A DNA stretch of 64,000 bases from assembly GCA_030141605.1 (NCBI GenBank), contig JAQGDQ010000086.1, positions 429,418 to 493,417 on the forward strand. Direction: 5' to 3'. The notes below the pieces were generated by a model. The model did not search any database, was not told the origin of the DNA, and was given only the letters and a program-made list of their open reading frames with translations. This DNA is from Tubiluchus corallicola (taxonomy: Eukaryota; Animalia; Priapulida). Numbering within the stretch: position 1 is the stretch's first letter; every line of letters begins with the position of its first letter. This document shows positions 12,510-62,825 of this stretch, piece by piece. The translations under genes and the position numbers were made by a program.

Positions 12510-13103
12510 TATAATGGTTATACAAATACATAAATGGTTATATACATATAAAAGATATATGATATATTTGTTTGTTATTTAATACCATTAAGGTGAAATT
12601 GCCAACTCAAGTAAGTTGTTAGGCTTAAAACTGCTATTTTCTTGCTTGCAAAAATGCTGATAGCTTTTCATAAATACCCAATTGATACATTTTGTTGCAG
12701 AAGGCCACATTCTTAATTATCATCCATTGCAATGATATTATTAAAATGAACCTGAATAGCGATTTGTTTGTATAGGATATGCTGCATGTATTTCAGTGGA
12801 GTACATCATACTTTAATGAAGTATTTCCACTAACAGTGCAAAGTAATAGTACTAAGTCACACGAGTTTATTTTCAGAAGTGTATATTTACCCTAAATCAA
12901 GACAGTTAATGACCATGCTGTTTGTAATATTACTATTGTAAAATATACTTGTGTTCGCTAATAATCATGGTAGATCATCTCTTTTAAAGCTAAATTAAAT
13001 GAAAACAACGCGACTTCATTATTCAAATCTTGTTCAATACATGTTGTTATTCATTGAAAAAAGTTTTGTACCACTAATTTTTATCTATGACTACAATACT
13101 CAC

Positions 13104-20576: not shown

Positions 20577-20682
20577 TTTCACCCGTTCCAAATCATTGGG
20601 ATCCATAACTGATCCTTGGAAAAACTCGACTATCGTAAAATGGCGCTTGAACAAGCCTTGAAGATCTAAATCTGGTAATTTC
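20577..20682 (-). CDS. slo: Slo1 exon: RCK1 (106 nt, phase 2->0)
   Basis: tatacag|G AAA TTA...GTG AAA|gtaagt; [35 protein letters not shown]. Confidence 0.95.
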
Positions 20683-23495: not shown

Positions 23496-23606
23496 CTGTT
23501 TATAAAAACAATTTCACATTCAACATCTTCCCGATCTTCGTGAAGAAAGTCCGTAAGGAAAGAGTTAACGGATTCGTAGGTGATGTGTCCACACACTACA
23601 ATGTGC
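23496..23606 (-). CDS. slo: Slo1 exon: RCK1 start (111 nt, phase 2->2)
   Basis: gtttctag|G CAC ATT...AAC AG|gtaagc; [36 protein letters not shown](R). Confidence 0.96.
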
Positions 23607-29570: not shown

Positions 29571-29662
29571 TTTTTCCCCTTTTCGGCTTTGTATTCCCCG
29601 CCGTATTTTGGTCTTGTACCGACTAATTCAAATATCTCCGGCAGATAGCTTGCAAACATGGC
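29571..29662 (-). CDS. slo: Slo1 exon: C-half of S6 + S6-RCK1 linker (92 nt, phase 0->2)
   Basis: ttttatag|GCC ATG...AAA AA|gtgagt; [30 protein letters not shown](K). Confidence 0.95.
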
Positions 29663-32491: not shown

Positions 32492-32662
32492 CAAGCCACC
32501 CATTATGAAGAATGTGATGAAGAATCGTCCCAGGATAGTTTTGCAGGAAATATCCCCATATCCCACGGTGGACATTGTTACTAATAGGAAGTAGATGCAT
32601 TCCCAATACGTCAGATTTTGCTTGTTCTCAAAGCCCAGGAATGGATCTCCCGAATTCTCCAA
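32492..32662 (-). CDS. slo: Slo1 exon: turret, pore helix, selectivity filter, N-half of S6 (171 nt, phase 0->0)
   Basis: ttttgcag|TTG GAG...GGC TTG|gtaagt; [57 protein letters not shown]. Confidence 0.97.
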
Positions 32663-36903: not shown

Positions 36904-37015
36904 CTATCCAATTACGATCAAGATAGATTGCAAGGAATGATGGAGGGATAGTAAAATAATCAATGAACGAGTGAACCTCCAGTAGGAACCAGATTTTGTC
37001 ATTTGCAGCTATAAA
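36904..37015 (-). CDS. slo: Slo1 exon: S2-S3 loop + S3 (112 nt, phase 0->1)
   Basis: cgtttcag|TTT ATA...ATA G|gtaagt; FIAANDKIWFLLEVHSFIDYFTIPPSFLAIYLDRNWI(G). Confidence 0.95.
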
Positions 37016-37118
37016 CTGAAACGAAGCAAAAACAGTATAAAAAAAGATATTCAAAACTATGTGTTCACGACAGGTTTACATTCTAGCTAACACTGTTATC
37101 TATTATCAACGGTTGCAG

Positions 37119-37460
37119 TCGAGGCCAGATTATGATCTCTTGGGGCCCTCAGACGGAGCCATCCTCTAACTCGCCCGCACCCGTCTTAAATATTTTTTTA
37201 CTCGCGATTTGTTTTAGCAACATTTACATAGCTTGAAGTAAACTTAATGCAAATTCTTTAAATAAATTAGTACAGCTATCTTTCGTATGTCAATAAAAAT
37301 ATTCTTTAAGAAATACCTCTATTTTACTATTTAGTGAAAACCAAATTAGCACATATGTCAACACAGCCGTAGGAAGACAACAGATTTTTTACAAATGTTA
37401 CCAAAGCTTGAGGGCCCCAAGGTTACATCCATTAGTAGCCTATAGGATAATCAGGCCCAG
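37119..37460. mobile_element. hAT-like MITE
   Basis: 8-bp TSD ggttgcag/ggttgccg; GGCCAGATTAT ... ATAATCAGGCC; subterminal ggggccc/gggcccc. Confidence 0.6.
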
Positions 37461-38049
37461 GGTTGCCGTTATAGATTCCTGGGAACAAACAATCATTTAT
37501 TACACGCTGTTACTGGAATGAAAAATAAATATTAAAATCTCCTTCATGCAGTAAATTTACATACTTCCCGTCATCACTAAGCCTTGACCAACTCACAATT
37601 CTAAGACACTGACCAGCTTAGAAATAATTAAAAGCGAAGCCTGTCATTTCCCAGACCATGGAACATCAGCTTATAAGCCCCTTGGGGGACATGTATTCAT
37701 TATGCAAGCAATTGGTCGCCAGACTTCAAATTTCTGATGATAATCAGTAAAATGCGAGTAATTTACTGGAAATGAATAGTCTTTATGAGATTTATAAAAT
37801 TCATCTTGGGTGAAACAAGCATTGAATTTGCTCTTTAATAATGTAAGATGTTGCTTAAAGGACAAGAAAAGGGGAAAATGAAGTAGGTTTCAGAAACATC
37901 GCCTTAAAAATCATACTACTTTACATCATTTTTATGCATATATCATTCTCGCGACAAAAAGGAATTTTTGTTTGTTTTAATTTAAAAACTTCCGCAATAC
38001 TTTCCGACATCCGATAATGTGACGACATTAAACGTCACCTACGCAAACG

Positions 38050-39568
38050 TAAATCAGGGAAGAAAAGGCAATGTTAAATTATGTCCCAAAAAACTTTCCA
38101 TGCAATTCTATATTACTTAGCATTTCGCTTACCTGTTGGAGAGACTCATGTAACTAAAAATAATAATTTAAATGATTGTGCCAATTGGTAAAATGTCGCT
38201 GGCTCACCCTCCAAGGTGCACCATCACATGCTAAAAACGCATTTCTAATCTCATTGCCAAGATAACAGTAATTTAAAATTTTACTTAGTAACACGTATGC
38301 TGCGAATGCTCTGATTATTTTTTAAACGTCAAGCAATGTTATCTAAACTTGTTTCAAACGACCTACCATTAAAATGGCTGTGGCTAACCTGCAACGCGGG
38401 AGTTTAAATCTACGTTTTCCACTGCGCTATTGCCAGTGGAAGTTCTGCAGGTAAAAAGGCAGTACGTAAGTGGAATAAAATTTCAAGACAAAATTTTAAA
38501 GCTTTATGTAAGTGGAGGGTTTTCTTAGTGCTTTAGCACTGTGACGAGACAATTCAGAAAACAATTCAGAAAGATTTTTTTTACTAAATGAAGGACTACT
38601 GTTCCGCTACTTGGCTAATAATTCCTTTAAACAATTTTATCTAATGTTACACGGCCAAGAAGAAATTTTAGTAAAACATTGTCTGCAAATGCAATTCCAC
38701 GAAAATGAAAAAAACCCATCAACATTTGGACATAAGTTTATCCACAAACTTTGATAACGTCACTGTTCATCAAAAATTAAGCAAAACTGCGCCCGTCTTT
38801 GTCGTTAAACAAGAAGTAACTTGATTACGTCAAATTTTCTTGTGGCTAACATGCTGAACAGGTTCTGAAATCTAATAATGTCCGCGCCTGGCTTTCCTAA
38901 AATTTTGCGAAATTTTCAAAAAAGTTCTGCCACCATGCGGCCGGCTGCACGTATCAGCCATTAGATGTTAACAAGCATGACACAAAAGGCAGGCTGTTTT
39001 TTTTCTGTGAAAGTTGGATAGTGTCACTGAAACAATAGTGTGAAATGCTGTTGCAATATAACTCTTTAAACTTAAAGCACAAGAAAACCCTTTACTCGCA
39101 AAAAACTAAAAAAAAATTGTCTTGAAATTTTGCATCACTTACACGCTGCTTTGTTGCATATAGGACTTGCGTTCGCACTAACGCTATATAAAACTTGGTT
39201 AGATTCCTGCGATGACCGTTAGGCACAGCCATTTTGACGATAGGTCATATGAAACAAGTTCAGATAACAATGCGTAAACTTTGAAAAAATAGTCACAGTA
39301 TTCGTAACACTAACATTCACTAACTAAGCAAAAGTATAAATTAACGTGTTTTGTTAATAAAATCAAAAATAATTTTTTGGTGAATCAGTGGTGTACAGTG
39401 GGAAGGCAAGTCAGTGGCGTTTTATCAAATGGCATGAACATTTTAAATTACAAAGAACTTTCTCTTTTCTATTAGCATAAGTCATTCTTGGCAAGTGCTA
39501 TGCCAAGTAATATAACGTGTGGAATTTTTTTGGGACATACTTTAACATCGCCTTTTGTTTTCCTTTAA
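38050..39568. mobile_element. Foldback element with ~480-bp diverged inverted arms (Kolobok-like right terminus)
   Basis: aaaaggcaatgttaaattatgtcccaaaaaa (38062) pairs with ttttttgggacatactttaacatcgcctttt (39525); aaaatttcaagacaa...gggttttct (38477) pairs with agaaaaccc...ttgtcttgaaatttt (39082); right end GTTTTCCT|TTAA. Confidence 0.7.
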
Positions 39569-40353
39569 CTCTGTATGTGCCGAACCCTTCTTTTTATATG
39601 CTGATTGCAGCAAATGCAAAATACTGTAGCCTTGCATGAAATCGAAATATAACGTTACATTTTTTTGATGAGAAAATCCGTGCCATATTGTACCTCTAGT
39701 CAAAACGAAGTGCTTTAAAGTACCGTTTACTATACCGTCTGACATGCGTTTATGCAAAGTTATACACCAAGATACGAAAATAATTTTACTAATGCAAACT
39801 GTAGAAGAAAATACCTTAAATATTCTTCTCTAATGCAAATAATATTTTGCTAAAAACTTAATCAAGGATTTATTTACATCTGAGATTTATATTAATACCA
39901 TGATCTGTGCTCCGTAATTTGGCAAACAATTTAACCAAAACCAAGTTACGCTAGGTAGCTACATGTACAGAGAAAAACTTAAACATTTTGCTTGGTAACT
40001 GCACTGAATAACGCTGTCTTAAATTTATATACATCATTTAATAAACGTCTTGTTTCGCTGAACATGGCAGGGTGGAACGAAAGACTCCTATAAATTACAC
40101 GCAGCAGCCAAAGAGATGCCTGAAGCCAGATGGAACTTGACGTCATAAAGCTGTTTTAAGGCTTCATAAATACAGGCGTCCACATCGTATCTCTTTCTTG
40201 CACCATTAAATTATTGGTGATCAACTGGCGGCTATCAATATCAAAGGATCACAACTTGTGCATATCAAAGCAGTTCTTCAAATGTCCTTGGGCGACTCTT
40301 ACTGGCACTGTTGCCGTATATTCCTCCAGTACAAATCAACCTGTACGCAACGA

Positions 40354-41667
40354 GATACAGAATGCACAGATCCTGCGGTTGAGGAGGTATGGAATACACA
40401 GATTCTGCAGTTGAGGAGGTACGGAATACACAGATTCTGCGGTTGAGGAGGCACGGAACAGACAGATCCTGCGGTTGAGGAGGTACGGAATACACAGATT
40501 CTGCAGTTGAGGAGGTACGGAATACACAGATTCTGCGGTTGAGGAGGTACGGAACAGACAGATTCTGCGATTGAGGAGGTATGGAATACACAGATTCTGC
40601 GGTTGAGGAGGTATGGAATACACAGATTCTGCGATTGAGGAGGTATGGAATACACAGATTCTGCAGTTGAGGAGGTACGAAATACACAGATTCTGCGCTT
40701 GAGGAGGTACGGAACAGACAGATTCTGCGATTGAGGAGGTATGGAATACATAGATTCTGCGGTTGAGGAGGTACGGAATACACAGATTCTGCAATTGAGA
40801 AGGTACGGAATACACACATTCTGCGGTCGAGGAGGTACTAAATACACAGATTCTGCGATTGAGAAGGTACGGAATACATAGATTCTGCGACTGAGGAGGT
40901 ACGGAATACATAGATTCTGCGACTGAGGAGGTACGGAATACATAGATTCTGCGGTTGAGGAGGTACGGAATACATAGATTCTGCGGTTGAGGAGGTACGG
41001 AATACACAGATTCTGCGGTTGAGGAGGTACGGAATACACAGATTCTGCGATTGAGAAGGTACGGAATACACAGATTCTGCGGTTGAGGAGGTATGGAATA
41101 CACAGATTCTGCGATTGAGGAGGTATGGAATACACAGATTCTGCAGTTGAGGAGGTACGGAATACACAGATTCTGCAGTTGAGGAGGTATGGAATACACA
41201 GATTCTGCGGTTGAGGAGGTATGGAATACATAGATTCTGCGGTTGAGGAGGTAGGGAATACACAGATTCTGCGATTGAGGAGGTACGGAATACATAGATT
41301 CTGTGGTTGAGGAGGCACGGAATACACAGATTCTGCGATTGAGGAGGTACGGAATACACAGATTCTGTGGTTGAGGAGGTACGGAATACACAGATTCTGC
41401 GATTGAGAAGGTACGGAATACACAGATTCTGCGGTTGAGGAGGTACGGAATACACAGATTCTGCGATTGAGAAGGTACGGAATACACAGATTCTGCGGTT
41501 GAGGAGGTATGGAATACACAGATTCTGCGATTGAGGAGGTACGGAATACACAGATTCTGCGATTGAGGAGGTACGGAATACACAGATTCTGCGGTTGAGG
41601 AGGTACCGAATACACAGATTCTGCGGTCGAGGAGGAACGGAATACACAGAATCTGTAGTTGAGGAAC
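40354..41667. repeat. 32-bp minisatellite, about 41 copies (GAGGAGGTACGGAATACACAGATTCTGCGGTT)
   Basis: Period 32 (units at 40381, 40413, ...); contiguous units with point variants and no spacers. Confidence 0.97.
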
Positions 41668-43572
41668 AATAAAAACGAGCTAGGCAAATCTGGCGAACAG
41701 GTTCAACCGACATGCTGTTGGTAACGCCTCAAATTGAAAAAAACGTAAATGATTCCAGATGTGTACAGACAGAGCAAAAACTCCGTAAAAAGACAACAAT
41801 TAGTTTTTTTTGCTATCCATTACAGTTTAGAGTCCCATTATATTGACAATACAAATGGAAGAATTGTTAAATATTAAATGTCCATCCTTTTTAACTGACG
41901 CTTTTACATTTGTACTTATGATAAACTGTTTACTCAAAACAAAATTCCAGCTTGGTGGAATTAAAATTACATAGAATTAAATTAAACCAAACATGGTTAA
42001 CCACAGGTACAAAATGTCATGACAATAGTTATCACAATTAATCAAATTTGAAGAATCGCAGCTGCCTTTAATAATAAATAATAAAAAATCTACACAAATG
42101 TGCTGTACAATATTGGCAATATAAATTCTCTAAGAATTGCCTTATTTACATTCGGAATCCACCCAGTTCATAATTCTTTAATTACAGTAAATAAAAGCAA
42201 AATCAAATATCACATTCTGCTTAACTAAGATAAAAACTAATTAAGCTAAAATTAGTACAAACTTAATGAGTATAAAATGCACACACTTCATTAAATAGAA
42301 AGGCAGTTATAAATCTTAGTTTACTATTAGTTTGTTAGTGATCAATTCTAAACGTTACGTTTACTATTAGTTTCTTAGTAAAAAGACATCAGACAATCCA
42401 AGAGACAGTTAGTCTTCCAGTTGAAATGGAACAAATCTTACAAAATTAGCAAAAAAGGACGTTTTTAAAACTTTTATAGAGCGAAATAAAAAATGTAATA
42501 GCAATGAATTAAAAAAACAGTGCACGTCAATTTCTTTTCTTGTGATTTTTCTTCTGTTAGCTGTTCCCATTCTCTTTGTTAACAAATATGTCTAGATTAT
42601 TTTTTACTATGTAAATTATATGACATCAGACATGTTTATTTACCCAGTTAGCACAATGTTACAATATACAACAATTACAAATACATGATTGACAATGCAT
42701 GCCACTGCTATGACCATAGCAAAAGAAATTAACTTAGAAGCTACGCTCAACATGAATAGGCCTTAATTATGTCAAAAACTAACGTTTCTTTTTTGTATGT
42801 TTGTATAATTTTATTTTTATGACAAAAAAGCATTTCTACACCCGATGGACTATTTTTGGCTTTTACACATTTACTATAAAATTTCCTTGTCAGCCGATGG
42901 CAGAAAGTTAGAAAAATATAGCAGCAAAGATAAGAAATTTACAAAACTACATGGAATTCCTCAAGGCTCTATATAGGTACCATAAGTTATTAGAGCATCG
43001 AGTTTATATACAAAGTTTTATTTATGTTCTTTGCCCTTCAAAACTCCATGTACATATACAAACAGAAAATGAATTTCTTGATTGTTTAATAATAAGTTAT
43101 TAAGAGAAACGAAAGAAATTAAACGATAACTCTCAGCCGTCATTACTCATAAAAATTTGCAAATTACGCATGTTTTTACACAAGTACGAGAAAAGGATTT
43201 TTCTTAGAATTACATTAACTTTTCATTTCAGCTTATTAAGCATTTATCGTCATAATTTTGGAGAAATAAAGAACGCAAATAAGTTTTATTAAGATTTTAT
43301 CGTTCTAGGGAAAGCACGGAAATAACTTTTCGCAATTTGCTCACATGATCAAAACCATAAACCCAAGCCAAAAACCAATAAAGTTCAATTGAAAGGAACT
43401 GATAACGTTGTTGCCATTGGAGCCACAGGAAGTGACATTTTGATTTTCAACGTATTGCTAACTGAAGGAAGTAACAGGTCTTTTCTTGATAATCACATAG
43501 AAACTACTACAATGATAAATTTGGCTAAAGTTTACAATCCCGCACGCATAAGAAATTTGTTCCAGGGGCGAA

Positions 43573-43612
43573 TTAGGATTAGGGATAGGATTAGGGTTAG
43601 GGATAGGGTTAG
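43573..43612 (+). repeat. Short degenerate TTAGGG-like tract
   Basis: ttaggattagggataggattagggttagggatagggttag. Confidence 0.6.
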
Positions 43613-44292
43613 AATATTTAAATTGTGTGGGGAATTGTAAACTCCTTCCTTGAATTTTTTATTGTATAACAACTCGAGTTATAAATGTTCGAGACGCTAT
43701 ATTAGTAAAAAAAATTCCAGATTAATTGTACAGGTATTCCATAAACTTTTAAACCGAAACCATTATTGGTAGAACGAAGTTAAACGATTCTCAACATTAC
43801 AGCATTATTAAAGGCTACGGCATAAGAGCAATAGTGTCACTTTTATTAGGTTTACAGCGTAGTTAAATAAATCTGAAGTAAGTTTTAACTAATGTTTAAA
43901 TGTTTTCAACTGTGCTGCTTAAGCTGGGTAATCATATGACCTTGTTTCTAAAATAAAGTTTTAAAAACTACACTACGACTGTTTAAAACTACGGAAAAGC
44001 AACCTTTCCATACTGCATTTTAGTTTCTTGAAAAAATCTGCACCAAGCTTTTAAATGCGCAAAATATCAGCGCACCAGGAACCAATGGATTTTTTTCTAC
44101 AAAAACTCGCACAAACACAAACATATCTAGTTTTGTTATTGTTAGCTGAAGCTTCATGATGCTATCTCAAAAGTGAAGCAGCCAGAGCATCTGAAATTAG
44201 GGCAGCTAACAAGCTATTTTAGGTTTTTACGAGACACAGTCAGCAGGCCAATCACACGGATGCGGCAAACAACACGGGCAGGCGTCACTTAC

Positions 44293-44395
44293 CCGTATAA
44301 AAAAGTAAATTAAGAAAAATATGTTAAATGCGAGATCAATTTGCTGGGTCGTACTGTGCGTCCATTTCGGACACGTTTCCACATTTTCATGGCGT
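44293..44395 (-). CDS. slo: Slo1 exon: S1-S2 loop + S2, variant B (103 nt, phase 2->0)
   Basis: gttttgcag|A CGC CAT...ATA CGG|gtaagt; (E)[34 protein letters not shown]. Confidence 0.92.
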
Positions 44396-44932
44396 CTGCA
44401 AAACATTCGAAACACAATTTACTAGAAGACAAATTTACATTTAAATTTCAACATTCATAACTAATCCTATCCACTTATACAGGAAAATTCTGCCATCCAA
44501 GCGCAATCAATACACAACCTCTTGTTACAAGACCAGCATTTTGGAGGCAATAAGAACAATCTCTGTAACTGACTGCACTAAATTCTCGAGCGCCACAAGG
44601 TTCCATTTCTTGACCACTTGTTTTATACGTAAAATACCAAAAAAGTGGCATAAATAATTGCTAGAGAGTCACGCTACTAGCACATTATGTCAAAACTGTG
44701 GATTTTATCAAACTACAAGCACATCTTCACAGGACTTAGGTCGACCTATTCTACCACTTCCAGCTCTTAATGAATCAATTCAAAGAAATGAAATTGAGGA
44801 ACTGAGCAGAATTCTAATAACAGTTCATCGAAATAATATGACAACAAACTAACATCATCACTGAAGACGAGATTAGACAAAGTCCGATGTGAAGCTGTGC
44901 TTGGGTTGGTATACAACATCTACCATACTTAC

Positions 44933-45026
44933 CCTGAGAAAGAAGTACAGAAGAAAGAAAATATTGAAAGCTAAATCAATCTGTTGTGTTATGCTCTCTG
45001 CCCATGGCTCACACGTCTCTACAGAC
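44933..45026 (-). CDS. slo: Slo1 exon: S1-S2 loop + S2, variant A (94 nt, phase 2->0)
   Basis: gttttactag|G TCT GTA GAG...CTC AGG|gtaagt; (E)[31 protein letters not shown]. Confidence 0.92.
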
Positions 45027-48000
45027 CTAGTAAAACAGCGTTAGTTGAGTTAGTTAAAATGTTAGTAATAACAGACCAACCTGTAGAACAACTGATAAGC
45101 CTACTCAAACTGCAGAAGTATACAAACGATATTAGAAACAGATATTAGTAGTGTTAATTGAATAAGCTGGCAATACCAGTAGAAAAATGAAAGGTAGAGC
45201 TACCTATGTTCATTTCATGTCATCACAGTACTTTGTCATTTACCATAAATTCAATTCAATTCAACTTTATTTTCTCAATAACAGTTAAAAATTCCACATG
45301 ATTATTTTAACATTTTAATGTAACTGAGAAGGAGCAGCGATATTATATATAAAGGGTTATTAAACTAGGTTATATGACAAAAGGGTTACAAATTTTCAGA
45401 CACTAGAATTTGTATGTAAATGTTTTGAGGATCTGATGGATGTTGATGTTTTGCAGAGGATGCAAGAGCATCTAGTAGAATCAATTAAGAGCAAACTCAA
45501 TTTACATTAGGATGAAGCTAGGAACTGGTAATTTCAATTTAAATTCCCGAAGGTGTTTCTTTTTTTTTAAAGTATACGTTGAGTAATAGAAAGAGAGTGA
45601 AATTAGATGAATGTCAAAAACCAGAAAGGAAACTGCTCGGAAGAGTAAGTTAATCTGAATATCTCGGTATTTTATGCAGACACCACGTTAACTAAACATA
45701 TTTCTAGCACAGGGCTTAGGAAACAATGACAAAACGACCTTTTTCAATTCAGTTCTGAATTAGCAGCTAGTCAGTCAGATTAAATGCCCACATTCTGTGA
45801 ACAAGATTTCATCTAGCTTGAAAGAACAGACTGACGAAACATATACATCAAAGATAATGAAAATTTGGATACTTTTTAATGAAGACTATTTCAACAGCAT
45901 CCGTATCAGTGCCGGAAAACTGTTCATTTTTGGCATTTTGCTGAAAGGCAAGCATCCATAATGGATAAGAAGAAAAAGGTGCAAGTAAAAGGCAGAGCTA
46001 ACCTTGCCAGCACTTTCTTGTTGGAAAGTTAAGACAACAAATTCACTCGATGGCCGAGAAGTAAAGCATCAGAGTCATGCGCAGACGGAAAAAAACATAA
46101 AACTGACTTTATCTTTAACTCACCTCACCTGAAATGGAGTGCCGGGGGACTGTTTGGAGCCAGTGATAGTAAAAAATCATAAAACTGAAAGCAAGATAAG
46201 GTACAAAAACTACCTAAGAGCTGCTAATAAAACATCTACATTATCTTTATTACATGGCTATTTTCGAATAAAGTGCGAATCGAACTTTTCCACTCTTTCA
46301 TAAAAGCCAAATGATGGTGTTACACTCTTAAACGTCTAAATGTGCGAAATCGAGCAGCTTCTGTTATCTGTGCATGCTGTTTAGCGCATCTGCAGATCTC
46401 CGCAGTACCAGGTGAAGATTCTGGAAGAAGCATATGGGCGGTGAGTTCTCAATGCATGTGTGAAAAAGCCATAAAATTAGCAGAAAAACTGCCGATGATT
46501 CAACTGCAGCAGGCGGAGGATTCATTGTTGTTTATTTTCTTAAGAAAATTGTTGTCAACAGAAAAGTTTAGATGGAAGATTGAACTACCCAAATAAACGG
46601 CTTGCATGAGTTAGATAAGACAGAATGTTCTATGCACTAGAGCTGCGAGAAACGCCGAAAAGAACACGATTTCATCCAGTTTGAAAGAACGGACTGACGA
46701 AATATATACATGTATCAAAGATAATGAAAATTTGGACACTTTTTAACGAAGACTATTTCAACAGCATCTGTACATCATTTGCTTCAAAAACCTGCAAAGC
46801 ATTATAGAAAGCAATCAAGGATTAATTAGAGAGTCATAAGATCACAATTCACCGTGGGAGCAGCTGCGAGAAGATAAACAACTACACATTGAACTTGCTA
46901 ATATTAATTATCAATTGACTACTTGCCCAAGGCAATAACTTTGAGAAAGCAGGATACTTTCAGGAAAGCAGCAAGAAGTTCACTACAAAAGCAGCTCTGA
47001 AGAAAAACGAATAAAGCCATGCGATTGAAAATAATGCAATTACAAGTTTCATTGTTGTGCCTGATTAACTGGCCGGCCATTGAGAAATTTCACTTTTTAC
47101 ACAACATTCGCTAATATTGTTACAATAAGTATTTGCTTGTAAAAACAGCCAACGGATCTATTAAGAGGAGTTCTTAAGCTTTGTAATTATCACACTTTTG
47201 TGTCGAGACATTTTTATTTTTGTGCATTTTTGGTAAATTTGTTAAGTGTTTTATGCTGCTTCGTTCATTAAATGAGGCGTTTTTCATGGGACGTGTGTGG
47301 ATTTTTCTCAAGTAATTAAATTACTTGCCTACTTAAACACAAACAGCCAACATCCTCAAATAGCTAATGAAATATGCAACCAGAACAAGCTATTTGTGCA
47401 AATGCAGGACATAAATTTTTTGTGATATTTCTAAAAGAATTGTGTAAAATTTCACCCACAGATTAGCTGGAACAATTGGTTGCCATGGTGTTTGTGACAT
47501 GCAGCTGCTATGTTCATTGTCCTGCTGTAGCTTCTAGCATCACATGGGTATTGCTAAATTTGGTGTTACTATGGTGACTGAGCAACTTTTTGTCTGCCAT
47601 CTAGGTTCGAGTTAGAAAAACAATACAAGTGTGTAATTGCACTATTTGCAGTCGTAACGCATATTGGGTTTTTGCACGACAAACAACAGCATGATTTGAG
47701 CAGGTGTAGGGATAAGATGTGTAAATGAATAACATGCATGCATTTCACATCGGTCATCAGAAGGCTGCTAGTTCAATTCCTGACCTGGGAAATGTCTAAT
47801 TTTTCTGATAATGTATAATTATATAATCAGACGGTAATGACATTGTTAATTAGCTACTTAACGTGTGTGAAAAACTGTTGCTGAAACTTTAATTATCCAA
47901 AAACCAACAGTAGCCTATTATAAACACACATAACACATCAAACTCTTAGTAAGTATAAGTTACTAGTAAGCAATCATATGCTTAATATCCAGCATTAAAA

Positions 48001-50506: not shown

Positions 50507-50568
50507 TCAGAAGCATCGATGAAATAAATAACTAGCGAAGCTATGCTGAGCACAAATACAAGTACCAC
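50507..50568 (-). CDS. slo: Slo1 exon: S1 helix (62 nt, phase 0->2)
   Basis: tttctcttgcag|GTG...TCT GA|gtaagt; VVLVFVLSIASLVIYFIDAS. Confidence 0.95.
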
Positions 50569-53083
50569 CTGCAAGAGAAATAAATAAATTTAAAGATACT
50601 AATTAACAACCTTTTTTTACTTACAGTATTTTCAACTTGTACATCCTTAACTCATTAAGCATCTGTTTGTCAAAATTTCGACAAACAAGTTCACAATAAA
50701 TTAGTGAAGTAGGTCAACATACATTTCACAAATACCAATTTAGTTTTTGGTTTACAAAGAACAGAACATTTTCTTATATAGTGTTACACGTGTATTTGCC
50801 AATACATGTCATTTTATTGTTGTCCAGATGAAGTAAAGTTACCAGATGCCCCGTTTTCCATACAATCGTCCTGGCTCTTATACATTTGCGAATTCTCAAG
50901 AGACTTAGCAGACTTTTCCAGAATTTTGTTTTCATGTACCAGATACATATTACTGCTGTTAAGAACTTAGAATACACTTCAAATTTAAGAGAAAATAAGT
51001 TTCAGTGTAATAATATTATAACTTGCTGAGTAAAATGACATTTCATGAAGACTGTCAACACCAAAGTAAATATGACAGCTTCGATGGCCAAGTTGAAGTT
51101 ATTGTATGATGCCACTATTTAAATTTTTTAAAAATAATAATGATTATGATTCACGACAATTCAAACAAATTTGCTTGCCATGTGGTGCTTGTAACAGACT
51201 AATTCAGTAGGCTACATAAGTTTACGAGCAAGTTGCGGAAGTTAGTACGACATTAATTGTGTAACACTAACAGAACAAAAAGTCGTAAGTTCGGTAGCTT
51301 TTTTGCAAAGAAGCAGAAATGCAGAAATTTTTGCTAAACGCAAATATTCATTCATTCACATAAATTTGCAATAGCTGCCTTTGCAATATAAGCAACCATA
51401 ATTTCAGACGCACTATTGTACCTTATTCTTTATAATGAACGTTAATACGTTTTGTGATTAACATTTCATTTAACCAAAGTTATTTACAAAAATGTCAGTA
51501 ATATCAGCAACTATATTCTTCAAAATGTAACCACCGAGGTTCAAAGTTTTAAAATAATTAAACAAAGAGAGCAATGACCGAGGCAGACCTTTGTTACCAG
51601 CACACAAAGTAACCAGCAAAAAATAATGCGTATTGGCAGAAAGCACTGCAACCAAATAGTTCACATCTAATTGTGAATCTCGTGTTTTAGATTAACACCA
51701 ATATTGGTGTTTTAATTTTGTCCTTAATCGCAAAATCTTAATGAAATTAGCAATTAACCTGCCAATTAAATTCACTAAACTCTAATCAGCACAGCTCAAA
51801 ATTTCATAACAAGCAAAAAAAGAGTGCAATGACCTGAATAGATATTTTGTCTAGCAAAGTGTTCATCAAATACAAAAATTCCTGTCATGTTTGTTTTGTT
51901 GTCTGCACAATGTTTTTGAAATGTTGTGTGTGGATTTCAAATTTTTAAAGTACTGGCTGCGGGACAAGAGATAAAACATCGACAGGTTTTGGCGATAAAT
52001 TAACAGATTTGAAAAAAATAATTATGATCACAAAATGTCAGTGATAGCTTTAATGAAAAAGGCGGTTTGCGAAGTTTGTTAGGAAAGTGTGCAAAAAGTT
52101 TGAGGGTTTCATTAAAATTAATGGAAAATGTGCTGTAGGTCATGATGGATTGATTAAATTTTAGTGATGATGTAAATTTTAGTAAATGAGGAAAGAAACT
52201 CTTAATGATTAAACATGATTTTGCTTGGGGGAAATTTCAGCGTGATGCTATGGCAATTAGTATGTGCTACAATATAAACAATTTGATAGGCACAGCCAGC
52301 ATGACTACTGCTCCTGAGTGAAAACTTGTAGTGTTAAATTGGCAGTCTTGTGCTCACAGAAGTGCATTTATCATCTTATCAGTTATTATTATAGCGCAGT
52401 TATTATGTCTGAAGTCATACTGTTGATGTTCTGATGTTCATTCCAATACCAAACAATGTGTCCTGAAGAAATAACGAAATGTAAGCACGTTCTTTGCATC
52501 ATTAATGGAAAAAATATCCCGCAACAATTGGGATGTTCCGTAATCTAAACAAGAAAAAAGTTGTACTGCACTGTACCTGCCTTCTTGATTAATTATTTTG
52601 TAATAAGCGAACGTTTTCATCATAATTCATACCTAACAGCAAGATTTACTAGTGCAAGATATAACACCAGAGCAATAAAACTATTAATGGAATTCGTTAT
52701 CAATGCTATTGATGTGCACAACTCACGTCAATTTCATTTCTGCTACTATTATCACAACAATGTCGACTACCATCACGGGCAGGGCATTTGCAATTTTGAA
52801 TAATAATGCTCACCCAATAGATGCCAATTAACATCAATGTTAAAGAGTAACAAAGTTAGCTAGTGCAAGTGCATTCAACTTGTCATTGTTGGTTCCTAGC
52901 GATGAATAGCTGTCTAGCACGATTTCAACAGAATGAATTGTTTGACCAGAAAACATTGAATTTGTAAATCTCAGCAGGTGTGGCTTTTTCGGCACTAACA
53001 ATTGCAAAGTCCGTACTTTATGACATTAGTTCTAATTTATTTTGTGAATACAAGATGTTCTAAAGTTTATCTTAACTCATTAA

Positions 53084-53579
53084 CAGGGCTCGTACTCTAA
53101 ATTTCAAAAATTTAGAATTTAGGACATTATTCTAAAAAAATATAGGACATTTTTTGAAAAATATATAGGAATTATAGGTCATTTTTCCTTAAAAAGGAAA
53201 ATTTATAACCTTACACTACAGCGATTTTCACAATTTCTTTGCATAAGTAAATGATTTTTTCTACCTGTAACAGGAGAGCATTCTTTGGTTGAAGTTAGTA
53301 TTGCCATTGAGCAGCTTATACATTGAGCGACAGACAACTGTTATTTACATTCTATAAAATGATCAAATCATGAAGATATGTACTTATAATATCTAATTGT
53401 AGTTATGCGATTTCACATAACATTCACATTTCATTGAGAATTCATGATTTTATGGGAATTATAGGACATTTTTATAGTTGTATCAAGTTTTATAGGAATT
53501 ATAGGACATAACCCCAAAATATAGGAATTATAAGGCGTTTTCAAAAAATATAGGAATTATAGGATGAGTACAAGCCCTG
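53084..53579. mobile_element. MITE with CAGGG termini and TATAGGA subterminal repeats (hAT-like)
   Basis: CAGGGCTCGTACTC ... GAGTACAAGCCCTG (13/14); many (t)ataggaattataggac motifs; possible 6-bp TSD cattaa/tattaa. Confidence 0.75.
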
Positions 53580-56500
53580 TATTAATAAAAAATGACTGTA
53601 GAAATGTGCGGAATGGCAATGACGAGATAATGATGACGATGACAACGACATTTTATAAACACAACAAAAATCCTGCTTAATATATCATAAAAAACAACAA
53701 AAAATTAAACAGTAGGAAAAACAAAAGACATAATAATTACTGCAGAACAAGTCACGGCTGAGACTTTACCATTCAGATATAATCCTTACTTTCACTTGCA
53801 AATGAACTGTGAAAAAAACAAAAAAATTCATGCTCCAATTGGGAAATCTGACTGTTCTCGAGATAAGCTTCGACTAGCTTGGAAAAATCAAACACGTAGG
53901 CTTGCACACAGAAAACAGGCTAGTTATATCTTGCTGGTGCTATTAATCGGACCAATAATTCACAAAATAAGCAACAAAGTTTTGAGACTTTTATAGATAA
54001 CAAAAGCATTGATATACATCACACCATGCCATGCCCCACTTGACAGTCATATGGTTTTATGAGAATCAGTAGCTTCCATAAAAGTAGAACAAATTTAGAA
54101 GTAGTCTAGAAATTTAGAATTTGTTGATTTATTAAGTGCTTCAAAGTGGAATGTGCCAATAATGTGCTAGGACGGGTTTGACTATTACAGAGAAAACTGA
54201 ACTGGAATAGTAGATTGGACTAATTGGGCTGCACTTGTAAGGAGTGGATTAGGCTGGATTGGAATGGACTGAACAATACGGGATGTGATTTACTATTATT
54301 ATAAGGCATTTATTAGTTTAGAAAATCTGAAAAATTTATTGCACATACAGTCGAAGACATAAAGCCCATTATTTGAAGGGACACGTTTTTTAGACGATAA
54401 TGTAAAAAAATATTGAACATGATGATACTCTCGAAATGAATTAAGATACAGTGACAGAATATGAGGCGGATGTGTGGTGAAGGACTTAAGGGAATTTGGG
54501 TAGTGACGAACCAGATCTCACTACACATTGGAAGTTTTGGACGGTAAAATAGCAGTCTGCAAAACTTTACTGCACATAACGGGCTGCACTGATGGGAATT
54601 CCAGTTACAATTAACCAGCAACATTCCAAAACCTATTTACCAAGCTTTTGATTACTGGCTTTTGTAAACAAGTGAAGATGATGGTCTCCTGTGGTATTTT
54701 CGCGTATGTCTCTCAGCACGTCATCTATTATTTATCTATCTTTTCCAAGTTAGTTTCACAATACATGCAAAATAATAAAGCCAGCGCTCTCGTATAAATA
54801 ATGAAATGTAATTTTGCTTGCAGCGTATGCAGTTATTATCAACTGAATCGATGCCTTTGTTGCGTTATGCGAGTACCTATTCTAATTAATGTCGCCTGAA
54901 TGGGTGGCTTCGCTACAGATAATGGCCTAGTAGCGCAATGAAGCCATGCAATCCAGACTGCCTACGTTGTAGTAAGGTTTGTCTTCATTTTTATCTTTAC
55001 AGGAAACCACAAAGCCCTAGATACAGGTAAGGATCTTGTGGCTAACGAGAAGGAAAATAGCTCCTAAAATTCCCATCAGGACGGATGATTAGGCTCTCCT
55101 ACACGACTGTTGGGAGTCACTTGGTATCATTCAATCTTAATACAGGAAGAAATAAGATGTGCTTCAGTCGAATTTAGTAAATTACTAGAACGACTATGAC
55201 GTGAAATGAATTAAGAATAAAGGCTATTATCTTCACAAACGGTCAAATATCCAGTTACTCAAAAAATCGCACACTTCTAAGAAAATCAGTACGAGCTTCC
55301 CTTTTTTCTCATTATTTCCCTCATTCTAAACTTTTCTTCACCTACACATAATTGGCTTGTTGTTCCTTGCACGTGACACTACATGTAACTTTAACCATAA
55401 CATAACAACCACTAAATCTATAAACTTGTAACTTTCTCACCCAAAATCTTATGTACAGTAATATCAAGCACTGAAATTTAATTTTGTAGAGCACTTGCTT
55501 CTAATATTATTGTAATACAAACTTCGAATAGCATATTTTTTTCTGCACAAACCGATACATATATAATACATTTGTACAAGATTTAGCTTTTTCTATAATC
55601 AATTGCTGACCAGTTGACTTACAAGAAAGCCCAATTATCTGTTTTCCAATGAAAGAAAATAAATTGAAGCCATCTTTTGACCACAAATTAAAGCACGTGT
55701 AGAGTCAAACTTTGCAATTAATTTAATGAGCGTCCATAACCAGTTTTACCTGAACTACGCTTATCTGATCTTCGATTGAAAAATGCAGCATACAAAATTT
55801 TTTCGTGAAGAGAGACGTTACAACTCTTTTCTGCCAAATTCCTGATAAGCTAAAGTGTTGAGCCATCAATTACAGTCAGTCTATCTGTCTCATCCGTCTC
55901 TTTTCTAAACAAATGCGAAAGAATTAATCGAACAGAACTAAACCTGTCAGCCTCAGCAATCGAAGAAAGATCAGTACAGCTTCGGCAAATGGTCAGGATT
56001 CGTCAGTGACGTCACAACGATTCAGGCTTCTCTGGGGGATCGGTCAAATACCTACTATGACGCAAATTGGTACTTGACGAAGTTCTGATTACTTTTAAGC
56101 TTGGCAACCAAGTCCCATGTGTACAATTTACAGAAACGAACAAAGAGTGAAGCCATCTCTTCCTATCTGTCGCTGTGAACGACCGAAAATCATAAAAAAA
56201 TTACATTTAATTTGCATTTAGATTAATAACCTGTAAAACCGCTGTTACTGTAGTAGATATGACTTCTATCTATATGTTACCTATTCTAAAAATGGGCTTA
56301 ACCTAACAGTGAACAGCTTGCTCTAGCTTTGCTATGTTCTGTACTACTAGTTGGCTGTTACAAGACGTTACATGCAGACATCTTTTTACTTATATTTCTG
56401 TTGAAACTCCTACATCAATGAACGTTTAAAGTATATCGTATTGTTATACCACAAAATTGGTAGCAGAGAGTAATTTGCTGCTAATCAAAGGGCTGACGTT

Positions 56501-57714
56501 ACTTGATTGCAGTCTATCGTCTACTCGCTAGAAATCTGTCTACCGGGTAAATAATTTCGAGCATTTTCGTAATAACTAATTATCGTCATTACTTCTTGTG
56601 GTCAAAGAGTTGCAAGTAGGTTGACACGTGACAGCAGCGAACGTTCGTGGTGCATAAACTGTTATAGCTTTTGTCAACAGGACACTATCTCGACTCCCCT
56701 TGCCTCTCTTCCTCCTGCGCTTTTTCTCGTTGTCATTCCGCTCTTCCTATACTCCCAGTTCCTGCTCTACACACTTATTAACAACTAACACGCTAAATAA
56801 TTAGTCCCAGACTATCAGAACTCGCAATTTCCTCATCTGTCAACAGTTGAAAAACTGTGTCAAGCCTTCAATATTTGATCTATCCGGGATTAGTGTCAAT
56901 TTCCCAATGAAACAGATCCGCGAAAAAAATGCAGGAATTTCGGGAAAGTTGGAGAGAGGCGTATTAAGAGTGAAATATCTGCGGTGTTCCTTTACACCTC
57001 GCTGTACAGAGTAATTCAAAATAAATATTCAACTCAGTCATTGTGTTTGGGGCTACAAAGCTGGTCGATTTGCCCAATGAACTCGTGCATTAAAATCGGG
57101 AGGTAATTGGTGGACTTCGTGACGTTTCGTAAACACCACGTGGCTTTATGCACGTGCTGCTCAGGCTAATTCAAACTTCTGCACATGCAAAAATATCAAA
57201 AAATTAGCTATCCATTTTTTCCGTAAAACATACTTTTGACGGAAATTGGCAGTGCACCACTTTTCTTCATCCGATGAATGACGTCATTGGTGGAAGAATG
57301 GTCGTTCAAAATGGAAGCACCCAAGCGTGAAAGACTGATTTTATCAATTATACGGGGCGCTTGTCACACTTTCATTACCAAATCTTTCAAACACTTTTTG
57401 CGAGCACTGAAATAGGGCCTAACCTCCCAGGAGGCTTGGCCTTTCCTTTAATGGCTTGGCTGGAGAGTTCATCATCACTAGTCAACTGGCTTACCCGGTC
57501 AATATTAGTCCATCGGTCAACAAATAACTATTACAGATTTATGTTTGTTTATAGTCTGGTTCTGTGTCAGCGATATACAGTTAACAATAGTTCGCTAATG
57601 ACGGTATGAATAATCAGCAGAATTAATAATAAAGGACAATGAATCTAGACTGATTTCCAAAATTAAGAGACTAATGACAAAAATAGTTACTGCGTCTAAA
57701 CCTTAGAGATGCAA

Positions 57715-58240
57715 AAGCGTTTCTGATAATCATAGATTAAAACTTAACTAATGGCAGGCGAGCCCAACTATTGATGACCTCACAAACTAACATAATTTTC
57801 AACAGCAAAAATGTTCCACGAGCGTGTTGCATTTGTTTGTGAAAACGAAAATTGAAAAATTGTGCTACTGTAAGATATTTAGTGTGTTTTACTAAAAGTA
57901 CGCAGTTTTAAGATAAAAAATCAAATTTCAAATTTACCGCTGTGATCACGCATGAGCAGTTGAACGCGTGTAGTTCCTCGCAAACTAACGCATCTGAACT
58001 GAGAGGTACAGCAACCTGTTTTTGTGCAATGGGTTTCCGAAATGCAGGTGCCAGTGCCCGTCTAACTAGCGAATGGCGAAATGCATACAACAGTGAAGAA
58101 ATAATGGTACGAAAGCGAAATTTTGTTTGTGTGGTAAACTTTGTTTCACGTAAACTATTTTTCTAAAGAAAGAGTGTTTCCTTTCAATATTTTAAAGAGT
58201 ACATTGTCTTGATCAACAGTTTAAGATTGAGTCCGGTTTT
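57715..58240 (+). mobile_element. Kolobok-like family copy
   Basis: Colinear with 23850-24360 and 5022-5527; ends ttaagattgagtccggtttt. Confidence 0.7.
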
Positions 58241-61200
58241 GTATTAAGGAAAAAACGCCTCCAATGTTTCACTTTTCTGAAAATTGATACCAATCTATTA
58301 TAAGAATGCAGATAAGATTCAAAACAAAAGTACGAACGAAAGAACACTTGCTGTTTAATACTTGACTGACATTATCATAAAGAAGTAAATGAATTTCAAA
58401 TTGTGACCAATACGACATCTGTCAGTCGTTCAAATTGGTAAGGGTGAACGAACGCTCAAATTCGATTCGATTCGAATTCGTCTTTTGGTAGAGAATACAC
58501 AGTTTTTCGTTTGCCCCTACAAATTGCAGACCTGGAAGAAGGTGCAACAAGACATGCAAGAATGTCAAGTTCACATTGTAGCTGCCTAGTTTCTTCGGCA
58601 GGCAACACAGATTTTACTCAAACCTATTTTTAGGGCAGCGCCGAGGATTCTGCTGCTTTCTTTTCACCCTGATTATTTACGTTGTTTACTCTTTTCACCC
58701 GAAACTGTTTTTGCAGACTCGCTTAGCTACAGCTCCGCGAGTTATTTTGTGTTTTCTCTGCGAACAGCGCTGCAAGTTATTTTGTGTTTTCTTTGCGTTC
58801 ATTCCGCCTCTGCAGAGCCTGGCAGACGATGCATTTAGCAGCGCAAATGTTACTGTAAACTATAACTGGCTTCAGCTTCGGCTAGTGTACCAACCGATGC
58901 GGGCGTCGTAGAGCCTTGCCGAGCGCGGAAGCCAAAACTGACTTCTCTCTCTACAACTTTCTGCTGTACGGAAGTTTATAATTACATATTAAACATGTGA
59001 TTTTGCAACGGCAAAGACCTTTGTACGAAAACCGGGCTTCGTCTCCTACACATATGGAAGTATACAAATTTTGTACCTAACAGGCTTGTAAGGCCCTTTC
59101 CCCTACGACTGACGTTATTAATGCCCAACATGGTTTTCCTTTTTTCTACCAAATGTACTTACGGGAACTTAACTGTAGCAAAACATGACTTCTTTCTTCT
59201 ACAAGACTGGAGATACGCTCTCAAACCCGTAAAAGCTTAGTGGTATTAATTTATTGACTTCATTTTTCTGCATTTTTCTACGAAAGTCAGACTAAATACG
59301 GCCCTTTTCCATGTTCTTTCTTATAAAACCATAACTTCTGTTTGCCAAAAACGATGGAAGCTATCGCATTAAGCACGCCTCTTTATTGCAAAACGACGGA
59401 AGGAATTAAACCAGACTTCTTTTTCCAAGCATCATTCCCCCTTTCGTATCTCTCTCTCACACACACACTCCCTCCCTCCCCCTCTCTCTCTCCTTTCCCT
59501 CTTCTTATCCCGCTTTCAAGTCTTTTAAGTCTTCTAAGACAACTGCTAATTCGAAGAGAAAGCTAATTGCGCTAATGAAATCGAGTAATTAATAATCCCG
59601 AAAAATATAACTTTTTAGTAAGATTGGCTTCAGGAATTACTCGGCGAAATTCCCGAACGTGCGTCATAATTATATAGAAAAAGCAGTGGGTTTTAATTCA
59701 GTAAATCCCTTTCCAAACTGACTAGAGAACAGAGCAAAAGTTCAGCGTCTCATTCTACCCAAACCAGCGGAAGTACGACGACGCTGCTCAGAAAAATGTC
59801 AATTATTTTGCTATAAGTTCGGTTTTATGAGCCACATGTGTTGTAGGGTTATTGATTTTCTTTGTCAATAAGAGAATTTTCCTGTTCCTTTATATTTATA
59901 TTTATATTTATTGTATGCAATGCTAAGGCGTACCACTTCCTTGTTTGGAGTCGACTCGGACACTGATCTAGTAATTGCTGTCGATCCATCCGCACACCAG
60001 AAATGTCCCTTGGTAAAAAAGCTTCCTAGTTTAGTGAAGCATTAGCTGTTAAAAATATAATAAAAAAGCTGATACTCGCAGTAACTCACTGGCAGTCATT
60101 CAGTAAACTCTCTGACTAGGTCGCTCTCTTGAACTGCCTTTAAGTTTGGCAAACTTGGCTCATTGGAAGAAGTTGTCTCTCAGCACATATCTTTTATCAT
60201 TGTATGGTATTTGGAACAGTGAAGTTAGAAAAGTGAGCCATCTTAAAATAAACACGTCGAACACAAAACCTGCTGAACAATGCTTTTTCTCACAACGCAA
60301 TGTACTGCCAAACGATGGTCACAGAGAACAGTAACCAAGAGCTACAATAACAAATGGAACTACCCACGTCAAGGTCACTGTGCAGTGGAATTTGGCAAGG
60401 AGGAGAGGTGGCCGTTCGACACGATGACATGTTGCCAGGCAGAACCTGGGGCAATGGTAAGTTAAGTTACCAGAGAACATCTCTTCTCGCGTCCACGGAT
60501 TTCTATTTTCGACAAGTGGTAACTGACTGTCCCAAGAGAAATGAATTCACTGACAAAATTTCAAAATTAGTTTAGCGGCTTCATCCACGTTCAGAGAAAC
60601 ACATGAGACGTGTTCACAATAGTTCTTATCAGGGAGAGTAATTGGCTTCGTGCGAGTTTAACCTTAACCTTGGCATATAAGTCACTTTTCCGTACATTAA
60701 AGGAAAACCGACGATTGATTAGACTCAATCTGACTTTAATTTACTGTCCAAGCAATACATTTTCTTGCATATAAAAGTTAGCAATTGTTTCTAATATTTG
60801 AATAATTACCGTGGACAGTTAATTAACGGGAACCGAACACAGCTATAGGTTACGTCACAAACTAACCACAGTTTCGGCAATGGTAGGCATCTTCTGTGTG
60901 CGTCGAGCATGTCTGCATAAGCGAAGATTGCTATAAGATGCTGATATGATGTAACGAAAATGAGCTTTTCGACACATTGATGTCACACACGAACACGGCA
61001 GTTCACGATCGTGCTTATCACGGTGCTGCGCCTATTTGTCGGCCACGCGAATGAGACAAAAGGCACCATTGGCAGACTAAGTGGATTTGCTCAACCGCGC
61101 GCAGCTTTGAAAGTTTAACAAAATTTAACCATCAGAGGCAATTATTATTTAACCTAAAATCTGATTTAAAAAGCTATTGCAGTTTTCAGTACTTTAGAGC

Positions 61201-61734
61201 ATACTTTATTTTTAGTTTATCCAGTCATTTTAAACAAGTCACCTGATTGCATGGAATAAAAACATGGGGAACAATTTACGCACTTGTTGGAATCGAACTC
61301 TGAGTTAAGGCATTACGGTTTCTGTGCTCAATCTGGCAGACATGCATCTAATCTCTGAAAGTATTTTACGGTTTGCTGTGGCGAACACATAATCTGATTA
61401 GGGTGAAACAGCAAACTATAGGCGTGGTGGAGATGTAAATATTTTCCTATTATATAGCCTCTATTGGCGAGAAATCCAATGGGCTTCGGGAGGTAATGGC
61501 TCTCTTATTGGCTTCAGGAAGTAATGGTGCTTTATTGGACCGCAAGAAGAAAATACAAGCACTGCGAGATTCCAGCTCAGATAGGTTAGAGTTATTGCTG
61601 GGAAAAATCAAAAACAGACCAGAGACAAAATGCTATACAGAATAACAAGCAAACTGGTGGAGCCAACAGAGTGTAGAGACCACAGTAGGGGCGCTGATAT
61701 CGGCACAAAGAAAACATGGAGCATATCACAGAGG

Positions 61735-62170
61735 AAACGAGGAAGGAGACATCGAAAAAAATAACAAAGAAAGAGGAGAGAAACAGAAAGGAACGAAGAT
61801 GAGGGGCGAAAGAGTGTGAAGGGGAGAGAGAGAGAGGGAGGGAGGGAGAGAGAGGGCGAGAGAGAGTGTGTGTGAGAGAGAGAGAGGGAAGGAGGAAAAG
61901 AGGGGAGAGAGAAAGGGAGAGGGAGGAACAAAAAGAGTGAGAAGACGAGATTCAAATTATTAGGCCCGTGAGTAGCCATGTTTTTGCACAGAGGAGGAAA
62001 TATCCCTGTTTCTTAATGAGATAGTGACAGAAATTGATTGAAAGTGCAGGAAAAAGAAAGAAGGGAGAGAAGGAAGTATGGAGAGAGATACGCGACAGTG
62101 AAAAGTTGAAAAAGTAAGATGAAAAAGAATTGGGGCTAAACAGGAGATGAAGCAAAGAAAATACGAAAGC
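61735..62170. repeat. AG-rich low-complexity tract
   Basis: Direct reading. Confidence 0.8.
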
Positions 62171-62754
62171 AGGAAAGAAGGTACAAAATAATACAGGTAG
62201 AAGTCAGTAAGGTGTTTTACGCATAGTATATATAGTACTACGGTATGGTACTATGATATACACACACACACACACGCACACGCACACGCACATGCACACA
62301 CACGCATATACACTGTTTGCGAAATTATATCTCCAGAATTGTAATAACTATTTGCACATTTTTTACATTTACATAACACAGCAAAGGCTGAGCCACTTCT
62401 TATTCCAGACAGTCTACATCTTTTTGAACATTTTATACACAGTGAAATTGCCTTATGTCTACGGAGCTTGATAACCTCTATATAGATCATATGGCAGCCA
62501 GCCATCTTAACTGATTAAAGCAGCATGTGAAACTCAACATGTCAACTGGCGAAGGGCGATAATTATTTCTAAACTATACCAGTATGCTTCAGTTGCTATC
62601 AAGACAGAGGCACTGAATGACAGACAACGGCCTGAACATTGAAGCTTTGAGCTTTGTGGCTCTGAAGACATAGTAACCTCCTCAATAAAGATAACAAATT
62701 TTATTATGAGATGTATTCTTGAGAAAGACAGAGAGACAGAAACAAAAGAAGACG

Positions 62755-62755
<1 letters not shown>

Positions 62756-62820
<65 letters not shown>
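62756..62820. repeat. (AG)n microsatellite, about 32 units
   Basis: Direct reading. Confidence 0.95.

Positions 62821-62825
<5 letters not shown>

Follow-up and report, generated by a model that had tools for sequence, protein, structure and literature searches.

The question raised by this locus is whether a BK channel gene carries two interchangeable versions of the exon that encodes the S1-S2 loop and the S2 helix of its voltage sensor, and whether splicing chooses between them. On its minus strand, the window (the whole 64,000-nucleotide stretch of Tubiluchus corallicola DNA that was analysed) carries 14 exons belonging to one Slo1 (BK) gene; they begin with the S1 exon at 50568 and run as far as the RCK1 end at 13104. 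Thirteen of them, with exon A (Table 1) as the S2 exon, give 520 residues with zero stops. The predicted product, in which S1-S6 with the K+ filter are followed by RCK1, is 66-76% identical to 26 bilaterian Slo1 proteins and 48% identical to that of Hydra (tblastn and tree set), as expected of a Slo1/BK alpha subunit. In a 28-row Slo1 tree, assembled without deuterostome, chelicerate, priapulid or flatworm rows, the window sequence fell outside the supported pancrustacean, clade-I nematode, annelid, mollusc and brachiopod sets. A tblastn search with 16 orthologues found no exons for the S0 helix, RCK2 or the calcium bowl in the window. The same search detected no Slo1 exon in 50569-64000 and 1-13103, so both flanking introns are likely either longer than 13 kb or furnished with poorly conserved cassette exons.

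Exons A and B align to residues 126-156 of Aplysia Slo1 and 138-167 of the human protein, with the Cys, Asp and Arg at 141, 153 and 167. The original prediction had described two homologous exons of 94 and 103 nt, 537 nt apart, and coordinates and splice sites bear it out: each has an ag acceptor and a gtaagt donor, and each runs from phase 2 to phase 0. When the exons were joined by script to the S1 and S3 exons, S1-A-S3 and S1-B-S3 were both open, while double inclusion led to a stop at the third codon of B and skipping of both to a stop at the third codon of the S3 exon. The earlier claim that either event breaks the frame is therefore correct, both cases terminating within three codons. 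A and B thus have the sequence properties of a tandem mutually exclusive pair, being adjacent, homologous, similar in length and identical in phase, with intact splice sites and a non-productive double product. No other exon among the 14 in the window has a homologous second copy. The pore, S6-end and RCK1 exons (32492-32662, 29571-29662, 20577-20682 and 23496-23606), which are doubled in insects, nematodes or vertebrates, are single here.

Table 1. Positions of the exons and candidate regulatory elements around the A/B pair
Feature	Position	Strand	Basis
S1 exon, constitutive, 62 nt, ends in phase 2	50507..50568	-	tblastn with Slo1 orthologues; splice sites; RNA contig end, 12/14 letters
Intronic element E, about 640 nt upstream of A; predicted pairing with the B acceptor (26 bp, two small bulges, G-U pairs)	45659..45687	-	one genome
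ACUAAC in three copies, with starts 40, 28 and 19 nt before the A acceptor; candidate branch points and STAR-protein site	45040..45066	-	motif count
Exon A, S1-S2 loop and S2, short acidic loop, 94 nt	44933..45026	-	spliced between S1 and S3 exons in one X2 contig
GT-AG intron separating A and B, 537 nt	44396..44932	-	partly covered by X1 contig
B acceptor region (pyrimidine tract, AG, first 8 exon bases) with predicted pairing to E	44388..44415	-	1,381-nt fold
Exon B, S1-S2 loop and S2, 103 nt; loop longer by three residues and containing Arg, Lys and two His	44293..44395	-	X1 337-nt contig, 0 differences; no transcripts with B seen
S2-S3/S3 exon, constitutive, 112 nt, starts in phase 0	36904..37015	-	tblastn, splice sites, joint 44933->37015 in X2

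The introns around the pair are rich in repeats. High-copy elements (summed X1 depth in the hundreds to thousands) occupy 37068-39737, 43476-44009 and 46680-47747, and a short degenerate TTAGGG run lies at 43572-43612. A 32-nt minisatellite of 41 copies with 91% matches (40352-41665), situated in the intron between B and the S3 exon, accounts for the long repetitive open frames found there.

The two exons share 23 of 30 aligned residues and 58 of 90 bases, and 16 of the 23 conserved codons differ between them. Synonymous sites are saturated (pS 1.03) against a pN of 0.18, which falls to 0.10 in the S2 part and rises to 0.32 in the loop. In neutral simulations with the same 32 changes, none of 100,000 runs retained 23 residues without a stop. 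The intron flanks of A and B are unalike, 136 and 185 of 200 shuffles scoring as well. Saturation of synonymous sites together with 23 shared residues indicates an old, selected duplication and not an allele, a recent duplication or an assembly error. We conclude that, as far as sequence comparison can tell, A and B are an old tandem duplication under purifying selection, in agreement with what had been proposed from their synonymous differences. Among 130 distinct orthologous segments, in whose residue table several invariant columns are fixed by the search pattern itself, B was closer than A in 76, tied in 33 and farther in 21, and at residue 166 B has the Ile found in 129 of the 130, while the Leu of A occurs in none. 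B is accordingly not a decayed copy; on this comparison it is the more ancestral-looking of the two, and any loss of its use would have to be very recent.

Read data came from two runs, X1 and X2; X2 is small (13 million letters) and is taken to be RNA as a guess. One 242-nt X2 contig covers A exactly and continues from 44933 directly to 37015, leaving out 7,917 nt bounded by CT..AC. Its loose end of 14 letters matches the 3' end of the S1 exon at 12, both mismatches being synonymous. A product in which S1, A and S3 are joined without B therefore exists. Within exon A, the contig and the window disagree at 6 of the 94 bases, which points to a close relative or another population as the source of the run; the six differences with readable letters (two in A and two in each neighbouring exon) are all synonymous. 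No X2 contig covers B, a fact uninformative about B use. In X1, a 337-nt contig (44131-44467) spans B and both its flanks with 0 differences, a second (44478-44771, in the A-B intron) shows 4 substitutions and a 9-nt insertion in 303 nt, and another intronic contig shows 0 differences in 324 nt; none lies over A or bridges A and B. X1 may derive from the window's own source. As regards the predicted mutually exclusive use, then, splicing of A alone is observed in one contig of a probable RNA run, while inclusion of B is what we infer. Of the junctions by which the prediction was to be checked, 44933->37015 is present, with the S1 end beside A at 12 of 14 letters, and 50507->44395 and 44293->37015 occur in no contig of these two runs, of which X2 is small.

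We consider it likely that the S1-S2-loop/S2 exon of a single Slo1 gene was duplicated in tandem long ago to give A and B, that A is spliced alone in the likely RNA contig, and that B is its mutually exclusive partner, giving a second form of the channel with a longer and less acidic outer loop. Very probably B would still be in use, with wrongly spliced products removed by nonsense-mediated decay.

Two simple devices that could enforce exclusivity were rejected. Steric exclusion is incompatible with the 537-nt intron and with another AG lying 28 nt before the B acceptor, and U2/U12 incompatibility with ordinary GT-AG introns whose donors are all gt(a/g)ag-like. A structural candidate is the predicted helix between element E and the B acceptor. 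In the 1,381-nt fold, pair probabilities were 0.96-1.0 at 10 of 13 sampled paired positions and 0.49-0.61 at the three in the middle stem, and the helix closes a domain in both the minimum-energy and the centroid folds. The duplex (-27.7 kcal/mol) was the strongest of 28 acceptor-flank tests (next, -22.8); it was equalled by none of 150 shuffles and by none of 535 GC-matched YAG sites (closest, -27.5), figures to be read with the fact that the helix was picked post hoc from 59 inverted repeats. Element E looks single-copy. When queries of 45-51 nt were run over the full 64 kb, E scored -33.8 elsewhere versus -33.3 with B, and the B acceptor -32.8 with E versus -32.3 elsewhere, so that chance partners are equally strong. 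Tested against the acceptors, E gave -31.3 with B and -13.6 with A (cluster mean, -11.4).

Neither a competing partner for E nor strong partners for the A acceptor and the donors were found beyond the range of control sites. Docking-site/selector systems, in which one element pairs in turn at each exon, thus differ from this locus, where E pairs with the B acceptor and not with that of A, and a two-way switch is unsupported because E has no competing partner at the A acceptor. The closest parallel is ATE1, in which the choice between exons 7a and 7b is controlled by pairing that masks 3' splice sites (PMC7797038; here and below, papers with PMC or bioRxiv numbers are cited for the portions of them available). 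In both genes an intronic element pairs, here by prediction, across the acceptor of one exon of a mutually exclusive set. The ATE1 element, according to the same portion, is located between the exons and pairs with either acceptor, whereas E is upstream of A and is predicted to pair only with the acceptor of B. By analogy, E may hide B while A is chosen, a step that we hold to be somewhat doubtful; the model leaves unexplained how the helix would open when B is wanted, and the same helix might act with the opposite sign, favouring B by looping A out.

The helix also lends itself to another reading, namely that B is a former working alternative exon that is now silent or nearly so, A being the one exon used and E, if real, keeping B shut. 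The sole spliced contig does use A, the AG of B lies within the predicted helix at a probability close to 1, nothing was found that would open it, and the pyrimidine tract of B (9 of 15 pyrimidines) stands at the weak end of the 9-14 range over the 14 exons. Against this, B has no stop, no frameshift and consensus splice sites and is closer than A to the orthologue consensus, so that its loss would have to be very recent. The small size of X2 and the dropping of rare variants by contig assembly also reduce what the single spliced contig can say. The unchanged X1 contig over B, compared with the altered neighbouring intron, points weakly the same way, another intronic contig being equally unchanged. 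We regard a silent B as rather unlikely and retain the reading in which B is the partner of A.

A second candidate for regulation lies in front of exon A, where the three ACUAAC motifs are spaced 9 and 12 nt apart. Within 100 nt upstream of the exon, three such motifs are present at A and none at the other 13 exons. One of 2000 dinucleotide shuffles contained three, and 17 of 6,390 overlapping 100-nt windows of the strand, the A site included, contained at least three. ACUAAC is also the plain branch-point consensus. The run likely provides branch points and, as a prediction from the motif, likely a site for a STAR protein (Quaking/How/ASD-2). At the level of sequence it has what STAR-repressed exons have, tandem ACUAAC at the branch region. 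In mammals, tandem ACUAAC branch sites cause strong QKI repression of RAI14 exon 11, which is skipped in muscle (PMC13004596), and in C. elegans muscle ASD-2 represses unc-60 exon 2A, at the first acceptor, through CUAAC repeats at the branch site (PMC3875643). Exon A resembles QKI on RAI14 exon 11 and ASD-2/SUP-12 on unc-60 exon 2A in carrying the tandem motifs at the branch region of the first acceptor. It differs from RAI14, which has two motifs at 34 and 43 nt, in having three at 19, 28 and 40 nt.

No UGUGUG stretch was found beside the A motifs in the 174 nt examined, a supposed YGCY cluster of Muscleblind type downstream of B was discarded because 8 copies were observed against 9.2 expected, and two CUAAY after B were indistinguishable from the 0-1 after other exons. 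A second AG with a fair pyrimidine tract is located at 45081 on the minus strand, 54 nt upstream of the A acceptor; splicing to it would bring the ACUAAC run, along with an in-frame stop, into the transcript and could possibly yield a decay-targeted product if the branch region of A were blocked.

The extracellular loop is where the two forms differ most. Loop A has 4 acidic and 0 basic residues, and loop B has 3 acidic residues, 2 basic residues and 2 His, for net charges of about -4 and about -1, respectively. The prediction of a longer, His-containing loop thus stands, but the B loop is not basic. The distance from the S1 Asp to the Cys is 7 residues in A and 10 in B; among 50 distinct orthologous loops A is the shortest, all others having at least 8 and mostly 8-9 (loop geometry is judged here from residue numbering). 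The S1-S2 loop carries long insertions in Lingula, Darwinula and two further proteins (P0203, P0092, P0289 and P0299), and from these it tolerates changes of length. In the Nucella lapillus gene model P0124, part of the S1-S2 loop is repeated in tandem at the start, before the complete segment; the cause may be that this same exon was partly duplicated in recent times or that it is wrongly modelled.

Swapped positions are 142, 143, 145, 146, 148, 162 and 166 (human numbering). Several of the B residues occur in single-exon orthologues, in 130 segments Lys143 in 32, His146 in 7 and Thr148 in 85, and Pro142 in none, the table being the one with columns fixed by the search pattern. The equivalents of C141, D153 and R167, the last of which has a role in BK gating, are kept in both exons, as had been stated and is confirmed against human and Aplysia. 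In mouse BK, C141 forms a disulfide with the N terminus (PMC2391247), and D153 is both a voltage-sensing and the main extracellular pH-sensing residue, with contributions from D133 and D147 (PMC6054526). None of these pH positions is swapped: 133 is encoded by the S1 exon that both forms share, and A and B agree at 147 (Ser) and 153 (Asp), so the known pH-sensing residues are unchanged. S1-S2 linkers influence gating in other channels (PMC9693521; bioRxiv 10.1101/2025.09.16.676508). Judged from these residues, the functional effect of the swap is probably modest, and the case for the proposed tuning of V1/2 and of pH or metal sensitivity is weaker than claimed, given that the loop does not become basic, that the known pH residues are the same and that most swaps are found in single-exon orthologues. 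His146, next to position 147, may be one lead for a pH or metal effect. Since the gating core (C141, D153 and R167) is unchanged, the swap would act by way of the loop, making fine adjustments to voltage dependence or to surface interactions, and would not make a new sensor.

These similarities also fit a reading in which both exons are used as a near-neutral pair with similar loops and no tissue regulation, the ACUAAC run being a strong branch site and the helix a product of chance. Identical gating and pH residues, the presence of Lys143, His146 and Thr148 in single-exon orthologues, and chance duplexes of like energy within 64 kb all agree with this. Yet maintenance of two copies until synonymous saturation implies that each is needed somewhere, and three ACUAAC before A and none before 13 other exons, a loop shortest of 50 (A) and a Pro142 absent from 130 segments (B) also speak against it; we find this reading quite improbable. 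That the pair is an assembly or haplotype artefact, or that B is a fragment belonging to another Slo1 gene, is hardly credible: although A and B are never spanned together by one read or contig (X1 covers 44131-44467 and 44478-44771), alleles never reach saturated synonymous divergence, the flanks are unrelated rather than near-identical, B with both flanks and most of the A-B intron are present in independent contigs, and no other exon of the gene is doubled.

Control of the pair by tissue is probable, and the following arrangement can be proposed for it. A would be the default exon and would be shut off where a nuclear STAR protein (Quaking/How/ASD-2) is abundant, via the three ACUAAC motifs, and B would be the muscle-type exon; we put this at a little short of an even chance. 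The tissue rich in nuclear STAR protein is muscle in both mammals and C. elegans (PMC13004596, PMC3875643), and by analogy repression at the branch region of A in muscle predicts A outside muscle and B within it. Carried to its full extent, the proposal is a BK voltage sensor switched between nerve and muscle, in which B is normally concealed by the helix, A is blocked in muscle by a Quaking/How-type protein, and the B form, which has the longer loop and His146 adjoining 147, becomes sensitive to extracellular protons or transition metals at close to physiological levels. This complete scheme is unlikely to hold in all its parts. If true, it would be the first splice-encoded S2 swap in a BK channel and a natural pair for testing the role of the S1-S2 loop.

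Known Slo1 clusters include the fly A, C and E sites, vertebrate exons 9/9alt and the nematode RCK1 site, and tandem duplicated Slo1 exons are reportedly covered by Copley 2004 and by Fodor and Aldrich 2009. A and B, at human 138-167, belong to none of these clusters in pore/S6 or RCK1. Exons 21/22 of CACNA1C, a calcium channel gene, encode IIIS2. Tandem exon substitutions are enriched in ion channels; Slo1 acquired them separately in the human, fly and worm lineages, in the pore mouth and the gating ring (PMC9741552; PMC3245913; PMC3342872; PMC4270693; PMC6901604); Drosophila slo (three events), C. elegans slo-1 and human KCNMA1 all have tandem mutually exclusive exons (PMC9741552, PMC3245913, PMC4270693). 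A and B are like these clusters in gene family and in consisting of homologous in-phase exons that arose by tandem duplication in an independent lineage. They differ in site: the known events, in the part of PMC9741552 available, map on structure 3naf to the pore mouth/S6 and the gating ring, whereas A and B replace the S1-S2 loop and S2 of the voltage sensor. In Trichuris suis, alternative exons near S4 are tied to truncated forms (PMC4270693). Cav and Nav channels likewise exchange transmembrane segments, including voltage-sensor segments, by mutually exclusive exons (CACNA1C/D, cacophony including IS4A/B, and para; PMC9741552; bioRxiv 10.1101/2025.09.16.676508), but these are four-domain channels in which, as far as those sources extend, other segments are swapped.

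A survey of 181 sequences, 174 of which cover the region, from 15 distant taxon groups found no species with two homologous versions of the segment among the members listed (15 per large cluster). Intraspecific variation among those members was confined to alternative acceptors at the same junction in hymenopteran slo (RefSeq isoforms of Diprion similis and Aphidius gifuensis); like A and B they vary the S1-S2 loop, but they add one or two residues and leave S2 unduplicated. Copepod loop variants were rejected as alternative exons because they differ elsewhere too and hence come from different species, and a Biomphalaria pfeifferi variant because it is a paralogue, 75% identical overall. Protein P0121, from another animal, has two tandem copies of the Slo1 pore exon in one open frame, likely a further mutually exclusive pair. 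Homologue and representative searches found no close relative's locus with the A/B pair; taken segment by segment, the highest agreement was 27 of 30 with B, in a mermithid nematode, and 25 of 30 with A. A metagenome scan covering 3 of 64 parts gave three loci, of which the two genomic ones had one copy between the segment exon and the S3 exon, with 204 and 1,119 nt of upstream sequence only. The literature searched, which excluded most BK splicing papers as beyond its reach, contained no description of a Slo1 S2 exon pair. Within these 174 sequences, 15 taxon groups and a literature search of limited reach, the claim of a new Slo1 site is not contradicted, and the locus can be described as a known device, tandem mutually exclusive Slo1 exons, at a new site.

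Slo1 is a textbook case of convergent exon duplication, with described events at the pore and gating ring, and A and B extend this pattern to the domain of D153 and R167. They provide two naturally occurring versions of the S1-S2 loop in an otherwise identical channel, which allows a clean test of whether the loop tunes voltage, pH or metal sensitivity. The regulatory anatomy, three ACUAAC motifs and a predicted masking helix, is contained within 1.3 kb; it is thus of minigene size and predicts the choice of exon by tissue.
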